Shown here: positions 4,647-62,669 of the stretch, piece by piece | Layout: each line of letters begins with the position of its first letter | Numbering within the stretch: position 1 is the stretch's first letter | NCBI RefSeq assembly: GCF_004010195.1 | Contig: NC_057752.1 | Coordinates: 10,138,247-10,202,246 of the forward strand | Origin: Chiloscyllium plagiosum | Lineage: Eukaryota | Reading direction: 5' to 3' | Length of the DNA: 64,000 bases | Notes under the pieces: generated by a model | What the model was told of the DNA's origin: nothing | Seen by the model: only the letters and a program-made list of their open reading frames with translations | Databases searched by the model: none | Made by a program: the position numbers and the translations under genes

Positions 4647-5598
4647 ATGTAAACTATGTCAACTGCCCTACCCTTATTTCAATAAGGCAATGAAATATCA
4701 CCAAGTTTGCATATGAAATGAAGCTTGGTGGGGAGGGTGAACTGTGAGGAGGATGCAGGGATGCTTCACTGTGTGGTGGACAATTTAAGTGAGTGGCAAA
4801 CACATGGCAGTATAATGGGGATAAATATGATGTTATCCACTTTGGTACCAAAAAGAGGAAAGAATATGTGAATGGTGATAGATTGGGTAGGGGGAAGGTG
4901 CAATAAGACCTGGGAGTCGTTGTACACCAATTGCTGAAAGTTAGCGTGCTGGTGCAGCCATTGGAGAGAAGGCAAAAGTATGTTGACCATCATAGTGAAA
5001 GGAATTGACTACATGAGTAAGGATGTTTTGTACAGTGCCTTGGTGAGACCACACGTGAAGTATTGTGTGCAGTTTTGGTCACCTTACCTGAGGAAGGGTA
5101 TTCCGGCTGTGGACGGAATCAAACAAAGTTGACCAGATTTATTGCCAGGACTGACGTATAAGGAGAGACTGAATCAGCTTGTCAATATTCATTGGAGTTT
5201 AGAAGAATTTGGGTGGAGGGGGTGAGAGATGTTGAAGAAACTTAAAATTCTAACAGGTTTAGACAGGGTAAACATAAAAAACAATGTTCCCAATGACCGG
5301 GGATTCCAGAACCAGGGTTCATAATCTAAGGATGCGGGGTAACGCCTTTAGGACTGAAAAGGGAAATTTCTTCATTCAGAGTGCTGAGCCTATGGAATTC
5401 TCTGCCACAGGAAACTGTTGAGTCCAAAACATAGTAGACTTTTCAAGACAGAAGGAGATATGGTTCTTTGTCGTAAAGGGATCAAAAGTGAAGTAATTTC
5501 ACAGAGAACCGGTATCCCATCACCAAGTCACCCTTCTACTTACATAGGTAGTGACCAGGCAATCCCTACACTGAGGAGACCTTCTGAAACTCCTGTTT

Positions 5599-7181
5599 GT
5601 TTTCTTCATCTTTTTCTACAGTGAAGGGGAGGGTAGGGATAGACTCCTGCCTATTTTTTTTCTTTTTTTTGACAGCAGTAGTGCTTATTTTTCCCCAGCA
5701 CCCATGTCGTGTGTGTGCAGGTGTAGGATACAGTGAAGAACAACAAGTGCATAAATCTTTATTTATATTCCACCACCAGGAAGAAAGGAAATACCCGAGT
5801 GACCAGTGACAAGCAGTCAAGATTAGTGTTGTGCTGGAAAAGCACACCAGGTCAGGCAGCATCCGAGGAGCAGGAAAATCGACGTTTTGGGCAAAAGCCC
5901 TTCATCTGTGTGGAGTTTGCACATTCTCCCTGTGTCTGTGTGGGTTTCCTCTGGGTGCTCCAATTTCCTCCCACAATCCAAAGATGTGCAGGCAAGGTGA
6001 ATTGGCCATGTTAAATTGCCCGTAGTGTTAGATGCATCAATCAGAGGGAAAATGGGTCTGGGCGGGTTACTCTTCGGTGGGTCGATGTGGACTGGTTGGG
6101 CTGAAGGGCCTGTTTCCACGCTGTAGGGAATCTAATCTAATCTAATCAGGAATGAGGCTTTCTCAGAGAGTAAGAGACTCCTGTTTATTTTTTTTTCTCT
6201 TTTTTTTCTTCTTTTTTTTCCCACACTACTGCCTAACCGCGGTAGTGCTTATTTTATCCCCAGCACCCATGTTGTGTGTAAGCAGGTGTGAGACACAGTG
6301 AAAGACACAAAGTGCACGAATCTTTATTCAATTTCCACCACCAGGAAGATAGGAAAACACCCGGGTGGCCAGTGACAAACACTGCCCTTCACATCAAAGG
6401 GCAGTGCTGTGTGATCAAAACAGTGAGGGGGAGGGTAGGGACTAAATCAAAATAGAGTTGGAGGGAGAAATAATGCACTCCACTCCCTGCGGCGCCCACC
6501 TCTCCCTGAACAACTCCAGGGTGTTGGTGGACACCGTGTGCTCCTTCTCCAAGGACACCCGGGAGACTCCTGTTTATTTTTTTTTATTTTAACCCCCACA
6601 CTACCACCTAACTGTGGTAGTGCTTATTTTTGCCCCAGTACCCATGGTGTGTGTGTGCAGGTGTGAGACACAGTGAGAGACACAAAGTGCACAAATCTTT
6701 ATTCAAATTCCACCACCAGGAAGATAGGAAAACACCCGGGTGGCCAGTGACAAACACTGCCCTTCACATCAAAGGGCAGTGCTGTGTGATCAAAACAGTG
6801 AGAGGGAGGGTAGGGACTAAATCAAAATAGAGTTGGAGGGGAGAGACTCCTGTTTATTTTTTTTAGCCCTATTTCTTTTTTTATTTTGTTTTTTTTTCCC
6901 TTTTTTTCTTTTTTTTTCTTTTTTTTAATTTAACCCCCACACTGCCACCTAAGTGCGGTAGTGCTTATTTTTTCCCCCCAGCACCCATGGTTTGTGTCGG
7001 TTTGAGACACAGTGAAAGACACAGAGTGCACGAATCTTTATTCAATTTCCACCACCAGGAGGATAGGAAAACACCCGGGTGGCCAGTGACAAACACTGCC
7101 CTTCACATCAAAGGACAGTGCTGTGTGATCAAAACAGTGAGGGGGAGGGTAGGGACTAAATCAAAATAGAGTTGGAGGGGA
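5599..7181 (-). mobile_element. Tandem stack of five 5'-truncated Tx1-clade non-LTR retrotransposon 3' ends
   Basis: Each copy starts (on +) with poly-T and is bounded by gagactcctgttta-like repeats at 5586, 5640, 6174, 6563, 6843 and 7182. The longest copy (6188-6562) encodes RVSLEKEHTVSTNTLELFRERWAPQGVECIISPSNSILI* on the minus strand, resembling a Tx1 ORF2 C-terminus. Confidence 0.75.
5815..6160 (-). mobile_element. Penelope pLTR fragment containing a nested 5'-truncated HE1 SINE (5907-6147, +)
   Basis: gctggaaaagcacaccaggtcaggcagcatcc...gcccttcatc [SINE] aggaatgagg is the reverse complement of the pLTR at 54270-54369. Confidence 0.85.
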
Positions 7182-7190
7182 GAGACTCCT

Positions 7191-7224
7191 GTTTATATCT
7201 ATCAGCCAGGGCTCCCTGATTGGG
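7191..7224 (-). promoter_or_regulatory. CCAAT box and TATA box of the solo LTR
   Basis: Minus strand reads cccaatcagggagccctggctgatagatataaac. Confidence 0.55.
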
Positions 7225-7374
7225 CCAAGTTAACAGCCGAATCAAGGATCTTATAGTCAATGAGATCCCTCGTTCTAATCACTCCAAAAGGCTATGGGGA
7301 GAAAGCAGGAGTTGGTGGAACATGCTTGAAGAGCTGAATGGCTGACTCCTGTTTCAGTTTGGTATGTTTCTATA

Positions 7375-7975
7375 TATTGGAGCAGTTAAGAGAAGATTCA
7401 CTACATTCATACAGAGATGAAAGGCTTGCCTTATGAAAACAGATTTTGCAGCTTCGGACTGTACTCACTCGAATTTAGAATGATGAGACAATGTGATTGA
7501 GGTATTTAAGATGTTAAAGTGGATTGACAAGACGCTGAGCGAATGTTTCCCCTTGTAGAGCAATCTGGAATGAAAGGTCACAATTTCAGCCTAAGAGGCA
7601 GTAGATTTAAAACCAAGATGAGGAGGAATTAGTTGTAGAGTCATACAGCATGGAAACATCCTTCGGTCCAACTAGTCCACGTCGACTGTGTTCACAAACC
7701 AGACTAGTCCCACTTACCTCTGTTTGGCCCATATCCCTTCACTGTCCTCTCAAAGAGTTGTGAATCTGTGGCATTCACTATGTCAGTGTGGTGGACACCA
7801 GGCCACTGAATAAATTTGGGGAGATAGCCCTTTAAACTATTACTAATTAACCATCTCTGTGAAGCATGCAGAAAAGTAGCGTTGAGGCTGAGCTGAGATC
7901 AGCCAGGATCGTATTAAATGGTGGAGCAGACTCGAATGGCTGCACTGTCTGTTCCTACTCCTAATTCTTATGTCA
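7375..7975 (+). mobile_element. Old CR1 LINE 3' end with a short minus-strand CR1 tail inside (~7635-7740)
   Basis: agaagattcact...gactgtactcactcgaatttagaa...gagttgtgaatctgtgg...cctactcctaattcttatg CR1 pattern. Confidence 0.7.
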
Positions 7976-7989
7976 TGAGTGGTGTACCA

Positions 7990-10885
7990 CAGGTTCAGTT
8001 CTAAATGCTTTGCTATTACGTCCTTTATAATACACTCTCTCATTTTCCTCATAACAGATGCTAAACTTAACTGGCCTATAGTTACCTGCTTTTTGTTTTT
8101 GTCTACTTCCCTTTTTAAGTAAATGTGTTATATTTGTTATATTTGAAATGTGAAGGCTGAGAGAGGATCTAATTGAGCAGATTGAGATCTGCTGATGGGT
8201 GAGTCCCGAACCAGAGGACACAGTTTAAAAATAAGGGGTAGGCCACTTAGAACAGAGTTGAGGAGCAACGTCTTCACCCAGAGAGTGGTGGGTGTATGGA
8301 GTGCTCTGCCCCAGAAGGCAGTGGAAGCCTAGTCTCTGGATTCGTTTAAGAAAGAGTTGGATAGAGCTCTTAAGCATAGTGGAATCAAGGGTTATGGGGA
8401 TAAGGCAGGAACAGGATACTGATTGAGGATGATCAGCCATGATCATAATGAATGGTGGTGCTGGCTCGAAGGGCAGAATGGCCTACTCCTGCACCTATTG
8501 TCAATTGTCTATTGGCAGTTTTCCAGTCCTGACTTTTCTGGAATCTGAGGATTCTTGGGAGATTATTGCCAGTGCATCCACTATCTTGGTAACTGCTAGT
8601 TTTAATATCCTAAGGTTCGGGTTTTAGCTCTGTTAGTTTCCCTTGCACCTTTTTCTCTCTCATGATAGTTATTGTATTTATTTCCTTACTACCTTTTGCC
8701 CTTTGATTATTTAGTATTTTGGGATGCTGTTAGTGTCTTCTATTGTGAAGACTGATGCATAGTATTTGTTTAACTCCTCTGCTATTTCCTAGTTCCTCAC
8801 TAATATGTCCCCAGCCTCATTCTCTCTGTCTCTCTTCATATTTATATGTTTTACAGAAGCTCTTACCCTCCCTCTTGATATTACTTTCAAGTCTCTCCTC
8901 AATTTATCTTCCTTTTTTTCAAAAGTCATCTTTTGTTGGTTTTTAAAACTTCCCCAAACTTCTGGTTTTCTGCTAATATTTACCACATTGTGTGTTTTCT
9001 TTCAATTTGATGCTATCCTTAACTTGCCTGGTTAACAATGATTGGTTTAACTCCTTCCTAGAATCCTTCCTTCTCACTGTGATAAATCTTTGTGTGCTGT
9101 GAACTAATTTCTTAAACATCTACCATTGTCCCTCAACCGTCTCTGCTGCTAAACTCCTTTTCCAGTCCACTCCAGCCAGCTCTGTCCTCATGCCTTTATA
9201 ATTACCCTTATTTAAGCTTAGCACAGTTGTTTCCAACTCTGGTTTGTCCCTCTCAAACTGCATTTTTAAAAATTCATTCTTGGGACCTGAGTATTGCTAG
9301 CTGGGCAGCATTTATTACCTGTCCCTATTTGCCCTTGAGAAGGTGGTGGTGGGCTAAATTAGATTAGATTAGATTAGATTCCCTACAGTGTGGAAATAGG
9401 CCCTTTGGCCCAACCAGTCCACACCGACCCTCCGAAGAGCAACCCAACCAGACCCATTTCCCTCTGACTAATGCAGCTAACACTATGGACAATTTAGCAT
9501 GGCCAATTCACCTGACCTGCACATCTTTGGACTGTGGGAGGAAACTGGAGCACTCGGAGGAAACCCACGCAGACACCATAATGATAAGAGAGATGATGAG
9601 TGGATGGAAGGCAGAACAAGGAGGGGGGGAGGGGGGGGAGAATGTGCAAACTCCACACAGACAATCACCCGAGGCTGGAATCGAACCTGGGACCCTGGTG
9701 CTGTGAGGCAGCAGTGCTAACCACTGCACCACCGTGCTGCCCCTTTTGATTCTTGAACCACTGCAGTCCAAGTGTTGTAGGTTGACCCACAATGCCATTA
9801 GGTAAGGGATTCTAGGATTTTGACCCAGCAACAGTGAAGGAAAGGCGATATATTTCTGAGTCGGGATGTGAGTAGTTTGGAGGGGAACTTGCAGTGGCTG
9901 GTGTTCCCATGTATCTGCTGTCCTTGTCCTTCTAGCTGGTAGTAGTTGAGGGTATGGAAGATGCTGTCTAAGGAGCTTTGGTGAATTTTCTGCAATGCCT
10001 CTTGTAGATCATACACACTGCTTCTACCAAGCGTCGGTGGTGGAGGGAATGGACGTTGGATGTAGTGCCAATCGAATGAGCTACTTTTGTTCTGGAATGT
10101 GAAATTTTACCATGTTATGGGCACTGTTCCCTAGGCATCTTTACACTACCATCATTTCTTAAACCTGCCTCATTACACATCGCCAGATCTAAAATAGTCT
10201 GATCCCTGGTTGGTTCCACCACATATTGTTTTAGGAAACTGTTCCAAATACATTCTATGAATTCTTCCCTGTGGCTACCTCTGCTGATCTGACTATCCCA
10301 ATCTACATGAGGATTAAAATCACTCATAATCTGCCTTTGTTACATGCCCACATTATCTCCTGATTTATTCTCAATTCCACCATATAGCCATTGTTAGAGT
10401 GGGGCCTATGGGCTACTCCTACCGGTGTTGTCTTTCCCTTTTTCTTTCTTACCTCCACCCATAAGGATTCGAGAGCTTCCAATCTTGCTATCATTCTTAT
10501 TCCATTTTATACCAGCAATGCTACCCCACCACCCTTTCTTTCCTGCCTTCAGAAAGTCACAGAACCCTGAAAATGTAGTTCCTAGCTTTGATCTCTTCTG
10601 CTGTTAATTCATTTGTTATTCTGCATACTACATGCATTTAAATAGTGCCACTAATTTTGTCTTTTAACCATTTTTCCCATTGTGACCTTATTTGCTGCTG
10701 TTGTCCCTTCCTACCCCACCCTGGTTATCCAAGCAGCCACCTTGAAATGCTGCCATATCCTTTACCTTTTTGTACTACATTCTCCTGAGCCTGGACTGTT
10801 GGAACTTTCCTGAGCTAGCATTCAGTGCTATTCATCCTGTGTTTGTACATCTGCATTGCTTTACTAGCTGACCTCGCCATCTAAA
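7990..10885 (-). mobile_element. Decayed CR1 LINE ORF2 (endonuclease to RT) with nested elements
   Basis: Minus-strand peptides DFNPHVDW..EFIECIWNSFLKQYVVEPTRDQTILDL (endonuclease) and AGNYRPV. Nested + CR1 tail 8150-8510, second-family LINE tail 9275-10100 and a SINE. Confidence 0.75.
9358..9742 (-). mobile_element. HE1-type V-SINE carrying a 64-bp foreign insert (9575-9638)
   Basis: (GATTA)n tail at left, head ...ccactgcaccaccgtgctgccc at right. Confidence 0.9.
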
Positions 10886-21940: not shown

Positions 21941-22138
21941 GTACTAGGGAAAAGCAGGGTGCTTGAAGGAGTTGAACAGCTTGATGGAAAGAAGCAGAGA
22001 GAACAAGATGACATAGAAAAATTGAGAGAAAATGAAAATCTTTTGAAGCTCGGAGAGAATGAAGAATTGCTGAAGCTCAGACAGCATGAAGAATTGATGA
22101 AGAAACAAAAGAGTAAAAAAATCCGCACTCCTTCCAAA
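21941..22138 (+). CDS. ZNF148: ZNF148-like coding exon 2 (198 nt, VLGKSR...KKQKSKKIRTPSK; basic region)
   Basis: Acceptor atttcttctcatcaaag ending 21940; donor AAA|gtaagt at 22139; phase 0/0. Ends in a basic motif matching ZNF148 KKKKRKQRSPAK. Confidence 0.85.
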
Positions 22139-47044: not shown

Positions 47045-47810
47045 AGACCATAAGGACATAGGGGCAGAAATTAGGCTATTTGGCTCATCAAGTCTGCTCC
47101 GCCTTTCAGTCATGGCTGATAGGTTTTTCAACCCTGCTTTCCCACTTTTTCCCCGTAACCTTTGATTCCCTTGGCAATCAAGAACTTATCTGCCTTTGTT
47201 TTAAATATACTCAATGACCTGGCCTCCACAGACTTCTGTGGCAATGAATTCCATAGATTCACCACTCGCTGACTGAAGAAGTTTCTCCTTATCTCTGTTC
47301 TGAAGGGCCTTCCCTTTACCCTTGTCTGTCCTGCCAGTACAAACATCTTTCCAATGTCCACTCTGTCCAGGCCATTCAGTATTCTGTAAGTTTCGCTCAG
47401 ATCCCCCCTCATTCTTCTAAAAACTATTGAGTATAATCCCAGAGTCCTCAAACCTTCCTCATTTGTTAAGCTTTTCATTCCTGGGGTCATTCTCATGAAT
47501 CACCTCTGAACCCGCACCAGGGCCAGTACCTTCTTCCTGAGGTATCAGACCTGAAATTGTTCACAATACTCTAAATGTAGTCTGACCAGAGCTTTATAAA
47601 GCCTGCAAAGCACATCCCTGCTTTTATATTCTAGTCCTTTCGAGATGAATGACAACATTGTATTTGCCTTCCTAACTAATGACTCAACCTGCAACTTACT
47701 GCCTTCCTAACTAATGACTCAACCTGCAAGTTACTGCCTTCCTAACTAATGACTCAACCTGTAAGTTTACCTGAAAAGAAATATGGACTAGGACTCACAA
47801 GTCCCTTTGC
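47045..47810 (-). mobile_element. CR1 LINE 3' end (same subfamily as 26212-27890)
   Basis: ORF 47128-47496; closely similar to 26212-26920. Confidence 0.9.
47665..47770. repeat. 3 x 35-bp tandem repeat inside CR1
   Basis: tgccttcctaactaatgactcaacctgcaa(c/g)ttac at 47665, 47700, 47735; single copy in the sister element at ~26845. Confidence 0.95.
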
Positions 47811-59140: not shown

Positions 59141-60754
59141 TAAGAATGGAATTCCTGTTATGACTGCAGCTGCAAAGAAAGTACTGGTGCCATCTGTTCT
59201 GTTGCAGAAGTTGTGAACAGTGCGTGTAGACAATGACTAATAAGTCCAAATAATGCCGAGGGGCCCTGCATTATTACAGCAATGTCAATACTACCTTCGA
59301 GGATCAGTGTACTTCATTACAAACATACTATATTACAAGAGCAGTAGCAAACTAGCCTATAAGCAATGAGTATTGTCTGATGCTACTAAGCTATGGTGCA
59401 GTATTCATGTTGCAAAAGGTTTCAGTATTACACTAATATGGCTACAGTATAATACAGGAGCAGCTTAACATGTTGCACTCCAGGAGCTTGGAGTACAGCC
59501 TAACAACATTGCATTAGAAGAGGAAGATGAAAGCTGCCTGAACAAATTGTATTGCAGGAAAAAATGTCAAAACTACGCAAATACAGTATGGCATGCATTT
59601 TGAATAGCACCTATGAGTCTTACATTGTAGGAGCAATGCAAATAGAATGCACGGATCCTGTATTGCAGGAGCAATGCAAGTGGCACACGCAGGTCCTGTT
59701 TAACAGGAGCAATGTAAAAATCACTGACAGGTCCTGTATAACACGAGCAATGAAATGACACCTGCGAGTCCTGTATTACAGGAGCTTGTATGAAAGGTAT
59801 TACGTGAAAAACTACATACATACACTACGACGGAAACAATATGAAATATGCATAATGGTTCTGTATTACAGGAACAGTGCCTCTAGGATGTGTATTTCAG
59901 CAACAATGCAAATGTTGTCCATAGGGTTTGTAATAAAGCTGCAACAAAATATTTTCCGAATGTTCAGTATTAGATCTGTGATGCACACATTTCCTAAAAG
60001 TACAGTATTACTGCATCAAAAAAAAATCCCAAGGGTTCTGTATTACAACAGCAAAGTAACTATCGTCCAAAGATCCTGGATCAGAACAGAAATGCAAATA
60101 TTGCCACAAGATTCTGTTTTACAGCAGCAATACAAAAATTGCAAGAAGGTTTGATATTGGAACAGCAATGCAAATATGATCCAACAATACAGTATTACAG
60201 CAGTAATGCAAATATTGCTCAAAATCTGCCTTACAGATCAAAATAAATATTTGCAAATGGTTCTGTTTTACAGCAGTAAATATTGCCAAAACGTACCTTA
60301 CTATAGCAACAATGCAAGTATTGCTGAATGGGTCTGTAATATTGCAAAATGTAAAGAAAGAAGGTCCTATATCACAGCATCAGTGCAATCGTTGCCCTAG
60401 GCTCCCATATTACAGGAGCAGTGCAAATGTTGCCAAAATGTCTTGTGCTACAGCATCAAAGCAAATGTTATTCAGATACAGTATTACTGCAGCAGTGAAA
60501 ATATTGACTTGCAGCATAAGCGCAAATACTGTCAAATGGTTTTGTATCCTAACGGCAATGCAAATACTGCCAGAAAGGTCAGCACGACAGCAAAAATGCA
60601 AGTATTACCGAAAGGACCTTTATTGCAACATTAATGCAAATATTGCCAAAGATCTTGGGTTACATTAGCAGTGCATACATTACCCAAAAGTGCAATCCTA
60701 CTGCAGCAATGCACGCATTGTCCAAATCTCATGTATTCAGCAGCAATGAAAATA

Positions 60755-60961
60755 CAGTAGAACCCCTGTATCCGCGGATTTGGTTTCTGTGGTTTCAGTT
60801 ATCCACTGTTTACAGCAGCCCGAAAATATTACATGGAATACTCCAAAAATAATTCCAGGGTGCTGCCGGGGAGGTAAATGATAGGGTTTGCTCCTATCCG
60901 CGCTTTTGGCCATCCACGGTAGGTCCTGGAACGTATCACTCGCGGATACGGGGGGCACCTG
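60755..60961. mobile_element. Tigger-like (Tc1/mariner) MITE inserted in the minisatellite
   Basis: TA|cagtagaacccctgtatccgcg ... cgcggatacggggggcacctg|TA: imperfect TIRs and TA TSD. Confidence 0.8.
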
Positions 60962-62669
60962 TATTACAAATTAGTTCTGTATTACAGCTGAAATGAAAAC
61001 AGTGACAAATGGGACAATATTATAGCAGCAATGCAAGTATTGCCAAGTGGTACAGTATTCCAGCAGCAATGTAAATATTGTCCAAAGTTCCTATACTGCA
61101 GCAACAATTAAAATATTGCAAGATGGTTCTGTACTGCATTTGTAATGTGTGTATCACCAAAAAGTACAGATTTACACAGCACTGCAAATATTGCTAAAAG
61201 CTACCATATTGCAGCAGAAATGTATATATTGTCCTAAGTAACAGTTTCACAACAGCAGGAAGATATTGTCCAAAGGTAATGCTTTTCAACAGCAATATAA
61301 TTACTGTCAAAGCTTCTGTATCAAAACACCAATGCAAATATTGTTCAAAGGTGTGGCATTACAGGAGCAATGCAAGTAATGTCCAAATGTCCTATGGTAC
61401 AGCAGTGAATTAAATGTTCCTTATAGGTTTGATGTTGCCCAAAGCTGCAGAATTACAGCAGGATGCAAATTTTGCCTCAAGCTCCTGTGTTGCAGCAGTA
61501 AAGCACATATTGCCTGAAGATACAGTATTACAGCAGTAATGCTTATATGCTGAACAATTCTGTGTAACAGCAGAAATGCAAATGACTGACAGCAGCATAG
61601 CAACTATTGCCAGATGGCCTATATATCGTAGCAGCAGTTGTCCAACAAGCACTGCATTTGCAGTTCAATCTGAATAATTTTTCTATTTTGCATGACATTA
61701 CACAATATTATAGACATATTGCAAATATTACCTAAAGGGACTGCATTACAGAAACTGTACAGATACTACCTATCACTTCTGTACCAACTACAGCAGCAAT
61801 GCAAGCAATGCCTTCATTAAAGGAGCAACTGCCTATTGACTCTATATTTCAATTACATTGAGAATATTTTCTAAGGATACTTTATTCCATTATCAAAATG
61901 AATAATGCTCTTACTGTCATATTAAAGAAGCAATGTGTCTGCTGTCTACAGGCCCTCCGTTATTGGACTTGTGTGAATAATCCTTCCAGTACTAGATTAC
62001 AGGAGCAGTGTGAATACTACCTACAGGACCCTGTATTGGTGTAGTATTCTAAACAGTCTTTGCAATACTGTGTTACAGAATCATTGTACATTTTGCCTAC
62101 AGTTATTGTATCAAAGGAATATTGCTAATACTGCATAAATGTACTAAAATACAGCAACATTGTGACTGTGCCTATAGCTCCTGTATTACAGGAACAAAGT
62201 GAATGCTGCCCACAAGTATTTCACTTTACTGACAATAAGAATACTACTTACAGTTACTTTAACAGGAGAAGTGTGACATGATCCTGCAGGATTGCATTAC
62301 AATGACGATGATGTTTGCATCTTATAAAACATTATCTCTGAAAGTTGACCATGTTAAATATAATTGACTTATTCAGCATTATCAGTTCAAGGATACAAAC
62401 TGGTTCGTTGTGCTCCACCATTCATTTTCCTTTTGCTGTTGTTTAGCCACACATTTCTCAGGTAGGATTCATTAGCGCATGGCTATGATCAAAATAGCAA
62501 TTAGGGAACACTGTTAAATGTGGTTCTGTTGAATGGTACTGAAACTGAAGGCTTTTGGTCAATAATTATATCCTCGCTGCACTGAACATCCTGACAGTTG
62601 TGTATCTGAACTATTTGAACCCATACGTTTGTGTCGGAGAGGTGGTGTGTCAAATTATGGAATGGTTAC

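Follow-up and report, generated by a model that had tools for sequence, protein, structure and literature searches.

How does one retrotransposon come to lie several times over at the TATA box of another? The question is raised by a locus in the shark Chiloscyllium plagiosum, at positions 5485-7290 of a 64-kb window of DNA (contig NC_057752.1, 10,138,247 to 10,202,246). There, a solo long terminal repeat (LTR) of Gypsy type has its TATA box split by four or five sense pieces of a long interspersed nuclear element (LINE) of the Tx1 clade. All coordinates are those of the whole window, and L-numbers (e.g. L026) denote loci fetched from the same genome (3.56 Gb). The co-oriented, poly(A)-tailed pieces are separated by copies of a 14-bp word, six in all, which the first-pass annotation took to be the target, regenerated by each target-site duplication (TSD). 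We find that the word is not the determinant of the insertion site: mutated words are used, the words at sites outside LTRs are unrelated, and stacks grow from the promoter end. Placement is very probably anchored on a CCAAT box, whichever molecule reads it.

Position of insertions relative to a CCAAT box

Flanks sampled from across the genome, a check proposed in the first-pass annotation, bore out its reading that the LINE enters LTRs in sense orientation. Among 58 loci picked by LINE sequence alone, 32 had a sense LTR piece within 1.5 kb and none an antisense one (0/58); in a control for LTR proximity, 0/16 window tiles matched. Outer 5' junctions were resolved in 78 of 101 cases, the other 23 being dropped for N positions, short flanks or upstream poly(A), and 43 of the 78 lay after the LTR U3 region, in sense. 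Viewed from the LTR side and read by eye, an insertion occupied the same site in 12/29 LTRs of type A and 5/29 of type B, the two types searched. Both 32/58 and 43/78 exceed the threshold by which Kojima (2015, PMC4494074) defines target-specific Tx1 elements, namely more than 20% of flanks falling within a single type of repeat. Note that the same paper describes two crocodilian Tx1 families that favour LTR retrotransposons, with tandem copies around the TSD. Thus, the LTR preference of Tx1 elements is already known and is not new here.

On the minus strand of the window, CCAAT occupies 7223-7219 and the TATA box, GATATAAA, 7199-7192. Counting from the first base of this CCAAT, the inferred nick follows after 27-28 bp and the 5' junction after 42 bp. 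At 21 TSD-defined sites outside LTRs, the duplications (12-18 bp) had only an A-rich start in common, and there was no conserved nick-site sequence of the kind that marks stringent LINEs whose endonuclease is of the apurinic/apyrimidinic type (APE), such as Tx1L and R1Bm. Seven of the 21 sites carried CCAAT at -26/-27 from the duplication (p about 1e-12), which is the LTR spacing; mean identity of these seven to LTRs outside the box was 21-32%, and their flanks were non-homologous. Measured from the 5' junction, CCAAT stood 39-45 bp upstream at 10 of 40 off-LTR junctions (nine at -39 to -41, one at -45), against a chance expectation of about 1%, and slid control windows contained it in 3/650 cases. 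The discovery set contributed 6/15 and the later sets 4/25 (p=1e-4), including 2/5 from a held-out set. The box read CCAATCA at seven of the ten. Two further off-LTR sites had ATTGG, the reverse box, at -40/-41, and the near-match CCATT was found at -41/-42 in 3/40 junctions. Insertion at these sites holds to one distance and orientation with respect to a promoter element, whatever the local sequence. At the off-LTR CCAAT sites L002 and L229, an unrelated word belonging to the site itself is repeated around more than one copy. The held-out regions came from the first 100 entries in a list of 579 matches, with clustered matches and two earlier loci skipped; the 30 loci included 13 stack interiors, 7 unresolved loci and 2 in LTRs with no assigned junction.

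The words at LTR sites were compared after removal of six duplicate loci. The LTR site is still used where the word is strongly altered (e.g. L017, L026). In many off-LTR copies the word stands between the copy's poly(A) and a further one (e.g. L006, L008, L010, L016, L023); the word at these sites is therefore a 3' transduction from a source copy resident in an LTR, and not the target. Because the off-LTR duplications are unrelated to the word and yet the CCAAT spacing is kept at some of these sites, we reject the word as the determinant.

Insertions other than the LINE also occur at its site after the TATA box, possibly cellular RNAs copied in trans: an insert of about 380 bp in L046, and a short one with an A-rich end and a duplicated word in L060. 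In a stack at L076, the 3' flank has tRNA-like sequence after the word and poly(A).

Growth of stacks and origin of LINE 5' ends

If only the word adjoining CCAAT is a target, the youngest copy is expected at the promoter end. The proximal (TATA-end) copy was the least diverged in 16 of 19 stacks (p=0.004; 86 versus 29 pairs). The window fits this polar age order only roughly. With stacks polar and pieces independently diverged, the earlier proposal of serial re-insertion is upheld. The accompanying statement that the copies differ in length needs amendment, as pieces 4 and 5 (numbered as in Table 1) have one 5' breakpoint and differ in length almost wholly by poly(A). Their common 5' junction occurs twice in the genome, both times at this locus. 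The two pieces differ at 15/246 sites, carry different alleles at family-polymorphic sites and share no private allele beyond the junction. Elsewhere, 6 of 16 adjacent truncated pairs in stacks have a common junction, and L163 holds three copies, 4%, 8% and 11% diverged, with one start point. Since pieces 4 and 5 diverged independently and junctions nevertheless recur in other pairs, we infer homology-assisted 5' joining onto a resident copy rather than duplication.

Among 30 long copies (of 321 candidates), most start with ~70 nt that, read by eye, match the R region of type-B LTRs; these heads diverge from the type-B R just before the poly(A) signal. In L133, a type-B head lies inside an LTR of type A, and the R of this LTR comes after the LINE 3' end; the head is therefore borne by the element. 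An older, rare Tx1 lineage has a type-A LTR R head in 4/4 copies. This lineage (L138, minus strand, about 9140-9900 of the reversed locus; L197-L199) represents a second capture of a host start region. About nine long copies, again read by eye, start with a piece of the LINE's own 3' untranslated region (UTR) fused to the end of the head. In this subfamily (L103, L104, L112, L115, L116, L120, L124, L127, L129), the 3' UTR piece was apparently captured from an upstream stack copy.

Long copies show 5' and 3' transductions, and the same upstream mini-stack is found in L101, L121 and L123. Together with the heads, these features would fit transcription from upstream LTR promoters, which has been proposed for SINEU (PMC4494074, section 20). 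Among the listed sequences, no RNA record matched window 5300-7500. Two raw RNA runs (one sample) and two contig sets were compared with L132:150-1500; the runs gave 100 and 0 reads, mostly in U3 and without a start site, which is uninformative on the promoter. The suggestion that the LINE borrows the LTR promoter thus gains indirect support from LTR-R-derived heads and shared 5' extensions; the RNA reads did not show it. Whole LTR R segments with poly(A) were also found inserted at the target (L092:8810-8930, L265, L276). They end ~15-25 nt past the LTR poly(A) signal and are likely read-through RNAs that mark the LTR polyadenylation site.

The host LTR, the LINE and the window locus

The window copy of the host is a solo LTR. 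The host family is a decayed Gypsy family, because its two-LTR copies carry domains in Gypsy order, all of them broken. Searches gave 2,080 candidates for type A and 2,992 for type B (the sets may overlap), in line with the claim that the host is a dispersed LTR. Empty type-B copies measure 223-241 bp. The two-LTR copies enclose ~4-4.5 kb in the order protease (PR), reverse transcriptase (RT), RNase H (RH), H2C2 and integrase (IN) core; in L158, L159, L162 and L163 the LTRs flank PR-RT-RH-IN, with the integrase last and no env seen. TG...CA ends and a polypurine tract before the 3' LTR are present. The TSD of the host is 4 bp in the window. Nine type-B LTRs, several of them termini of two-LTR elements, could be measured, and one of the nine had a clean 5-bp TSD. 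No long open reading frame (ORF) was found in the internal Gypsy region at L095 and L096; long ORFs of this region were recovered from L139 and its relatives. Short, internally deleted two-LTR versions (0.4-1 kb internal) occur at L139:7862-8780, L052:1110-1500 and L161. The idea that the LINE disables a live host was not sustained: the best-matching LTR copies differ by 8-18% from the query copies and only broken internal ORFs were seen, while sampled LINE 3' ends average 2% from their majority (picked as best matches, hence biased young).

We assign the LINE to the Tx1 clade, in agreement with the first-pass annotation, because its ORF2 resembles that of Tx1L and the two group in an RT tree. 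The LINE 3' end gave 3,079 first-look genome candidates, 40 of which were scored, and near-complete copies were obtained by walking upstream. A 690-aa stretch of ORF2 in L091 shows 50% identity over 87% to ORF2 of Xenopus Tx1L (YTX2_XENLA). Human L1 ORF2 matches at E 4e-45, and the L1 endonuclease and RT both align. The RT tree (32 rows: 30 database proteins and two genome copies; human L1 left out; midpoint root) placed the two genome copies with a stingray protein, Tx1L and two turtle proteins (support 100/99), the stingray protein being the closest relative. ORF2 has the order APE, RT, zinc finger, and its N-terminus is 56% identical to Tx1L residues 1-55. Upstream of ORF2, many copies have a conserved reading frame with a CCHC knuckle, the putative ORF1. 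In the ORF pieces scanned, Pfam detected only RVT_1 and zf-RVT (the latter below its cut-off); neither the pieces of the putative ORF1 nor the APE start taken by itself gave a match. Poly(A) tails and 5' truncation accompany the TSDs described above.

A second 3' UTR found at the same LTR site was considered as a separate autonomous family. This reading was rejected for L181, the single copy amenable to tracing, which has 91% identity with the LINE RT part and then switches to unrelated DNA. L181:1600-3000 is a non-autonomous derivative at this site, in which the LINE RT part leads into a GC-rich tail of unrelated sequence and poly(A). Derivatives of this type, among them those of L036, L062, L092, L102, L111 and L129, are present in many stacks.

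The layout of the window locus is given in Table 1. The TG...CA element (5489-7286) and its minus-strand CCAAT and TATA boxes are as first described; its AAAG flanks are equally compatible with a 5-bp duplication with one mismatch. Five 5'-truncated LINE 3' ends had been reported. Their common orientation and poly(A) tails hold, but pieces 1 and 2 are also 3'-truncated, since piece 1 is an internal fragment and piece 2 is without the final ~25 nt of the LINE. Piece 1 was likely carried along with piece 2 by 3' transduction; a near-identical transduced piece is present in L026. The word does occur six times in the locus, although only four copies are exact, one having 2 mismatches and one (5640-5653) 4. 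Across the window, there are 6 matches at ≤2 mismatches against 0.52 expected, 5 of them inside the locus. Note that the leftmost word overlaps copy 1, as first delimited, by one base. Piece 3 holds the last 39 ORF2 codons (6561-6445) and the stop (6444-6442), and this tail is 38% identical to the Tx1L C-terminus (E 4e-6).

Table 1. Features of the split LTR, in window coordinates
Feature	Position	Strand	Basis or remark
LTR TSD, AAAG, left	5485..5488	.	
Solo Gypsy-type LTR, 3' part (R-U5), CA end, poly(A) signal mutated	5489..5585	-	
14-bp duplication word, distal copy, 2 mismatches	5586..5599	-	
Piece 1: ~22-nt internal LINE 3' UTR fragment and poly(A)	5600..5639	-	
Word with 4 mismatches: old duplication, or word brought from donor locus	5640..5653	-	
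Piece 2: older LINE 3' UTR copy, 5'- and 3'-truncated	5654..5818	-	26/146 sites off family majority
Two other abundant repeats inside stack	5819..6173	.	92 and 84 matches in fetched loci
14-bp duplication word, exact	6174..6187	-	
Piece 3: LINE 3' end with ORF2 tail, 3' UTR, poly(A)	6188..6562	-	
14-bp duplication word, exact	6563..6576	-	
Piece 4: 5'-truncated LINE 3' end, poly(A)	6577..6842	-	
14-bp duplication word, exact	6843..6856	-	
Piece 5: LINE 3' end nearest TATA, 5' breakpoint as in piece 4, long poly(A)	6857..7181	-	
Promoter-proximal word, insertion site, overlapping TATA box (7199-7192)	7182..7195	-	
Solo LTR 5' part (U3), TG start	7196..7286	-	
CCAAT box, proposed positioning signal	7219..7223	-	
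LTR TSD, AAAG, right	7287..7290	.	

Within 5819-6173, a piece resembling a short interspersed nuclear element (SINE) at about 5907-6149 is nested in a short repeat; the two repeats may be HE1/V-SINE-like and Penelope-like. The sequences at 4800-5488 and 7287-7700 presumably belong to the decayed 3' end of an older CR1-like LINE, a join unconfirmed in the fetched loci. Elsewhere in the window, three arrays of a 38-bp unit lie at 59629-61539, a 35-bp tandem repeat at 47665-47767 and a 27-bp tandem repeat, in-frame-sized, at 22026-22102.

Candidate mechanisms and known systems

We lean, by a modest degree, towards the view that the LINE is tethered to NF-Y, the host factor that binds CCAAT, and that NF-Y rather than the 14-bp word dictates the spacing. 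NF-Y is strictly CCAAT-specific and binds LTRs in mammals (PMC12065363). The LINE particle would be placed by NF-Y on CCAAT, either through contact or through exposed neighbouring DNA, and the APE endonuclease would nick the nearest A-rich step, provided in the host LTR by the TATA box. The TSD would arise from a second cut ~14 bp further. As only the word adjoining CCAAT would be a target, each new copy would enter at the promoter end and displace older copies, and its 5' end could join a resident copy by homology, giving repeated 5' breakpoints. Full-length copies would be transcribed from the LTR promoter, their head being a copy of the LTR R region without the poly(A) signal, and read-through of stacks would seed copies elsewhere with the word as a passenger. 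Taken as a whole, the proposal is more tentative than the role of NF-Y in it: a vertebrate LINE may be tethered by a factor of RNA polymerase II (Pol II), NF-Y, at a fixed 27 bp past CCAAT and hence on the Gypsy LTR TATA box; it may have captured the LTR start region, less its poly(A) signal, and turned this into its own 5' end in two lineages, from different LTR types; and it may thus both aim at and depend on CCAAT-driven promoters.

Several points weigh against anchoring on CCAAT. The box is missing at that spacing in 30/40 off-LTR junctions, a few of which are unresolved stack interiors. Even LTR-hosted junctions have CCAAT in the -45 to -38 window in only 26/46 cases, owing to numerous mutated boxes or to an offset of the junction. 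Filled LTRs retain CCAAT at only a somewhat higher rate than empty ones (14/17 versus 25/41), no more than a trend. The three CCATT sites fit strict NF-Y binding poorly. The CCAAT rule was noticed post hoc in L002-L030, 6 of the 7 TSD-defined CCAAT sites come from the first 29 loci, where the pattern was first noticed, and no more than 5 off-LTR sites could be resolved among the 30 held-out loci. The polarity test is biased, in that LINE-selected loci were required to have U3 within the flank and the reference was built from relatives of window copy 3. In the window itself, copies 4 and 5 lie nearer the promoter than copy 3 yet show more divergence (3.7-4.0% against 2.9%).

The alternative closest to NF-Y tethering, possible but in our view rather unlikely, is that CCAATCA is read by a protein of the LINE itself, ORF2 (or ORF1), without any host factor. 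This reading accommodates the spacing, polarity and off-LTR data equally well; the CCATT near-matches suggest a tolerant reader; and the LTR box is CCAATCAG, so that an LTR-adapted protein would yield the same motif. On the other hand, the Pfam scan showed no added DNA-binding domain, the off-LTR sites are without any conserved base between box and nick, and two sites have the reversed box at the same place. A sequence-specific endonuclease that recognises the 14-bp TATA-overlapping word, with each duplication regenerating an equal target, is improbable. The word flanks most LTR-hosted copies, and the Tx1L endonuclease in vitro nicks almost only its own target (PMC1950540), but this reading conflicts with off-LTR duplications alike only in their A-rich start, with the use of strongly changed LTR words, with stacks that are polar rather than random, and with words after poly(A) that are often transduced and form no duplication.

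Tandem duplication of the array in place, or its transfer as one block, is more improbable still. The confinement of the junction of pieces 4 and 5 to this locus would suit it, mini-stacks are sometimes co-mobilised, and piece 1 probably arrived with piece 2. For pieces 2-5, however, such an origin is largely refuted. Pieces 4 and 5 have different alleles at polymorphic sites and no private allele in common beyond the junction, and recurring junctions among adjacent pairs, as well as the three unequally diverged copies of L163, speak against it. We consider it least probable that targeting is RNA-guided, with transcripts that end in the transduced word priming reverse transcription by pairing with nicked LTR sites. 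The word does lie within the 3' transduction of many copies, but a further poly(A) follows the transduced words, those same copies landed at unrelated words, and the CCAAT spacing is left unexplained.

Target choice by APE-type LINEs is usually credited to the endonuclease reading bases at the nick. A close relative of the stringent Tx1L that measures from CCAAT would mean that a single clade has moved from reading sequence to placement guided by promoters, and the genome would offer a testable model, with at least 3,000 footprints, of the way in which LINEs locate promoters and manage with none of their own. An inserter guided by a host factor would be relevant to the engineering of site-directed retrotransposons, and would imply an insertion risk at real CCAAT promoters of host genes.

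New here are the CCAAT spacing outside LTRs, the polar stacks, and the LTR-R heads with transductions. A literature search, excluding subscription papers and Repbase reports, found no CCAAT- or NF-Y-guided LINE insertion and no LTR-targeting Tx1 element of a shark. Close systems are the crocodilian Tx1-8_Crp and Tx1-4_AMi, Tx1-Mar and SINEU (Kojima 2015, PMC4494074); the main text of that paper gives no site within the LTR and no CCAAT/TATA rule, its targets being in supplementary figures, and the same site is possible. The shark LINE shares with Tx1L of Xenopus laevis (YTX2_XENLA) the clade and an APE-RT-zinc finger ORF2, preceded in the shark LINE by a putative ORF1, and both insert into another transposon (PMC1950540, PMC4494074). 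Unlike Tx1L, which targets a DNA transposon via a sequence-specific endonuclease, the shark LINE has the promoter of a Gypsy LTR as its host and commonly inserts off target, and ~27 bp separate its conserved signal from the nick. With R2 it would have in common a reliance on the promoter of the target (R2 co-transcription is cited in PMC4494074, section 20), but R2 belongs to a different clade (RT match only E 2e-10) and targets 28S ribosomal DNA. In the literature covered, the precedent for factor-guided placement is TRE5-A of Dictyostelium (PMC5911963), an L1-clade APE LINE that inserts 44-54 bp from tRNA genes, which are transcribed by RNA polymerase III (Pol III), in fixed orientation; its ORF1 protein contacts TFIIIB, and box B mutations abolish targeting. 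Both TRE5-A and the shark LINE are APE-type LINEs at a fixed distance and orientation from a promoter element. In contrast to TRE5-A, which lies upstream of Pol III genes in the opposite orientation, the shark LINE has a Pol II CCAAT box as its proposed anchor and inserts downstream of it, in sense.

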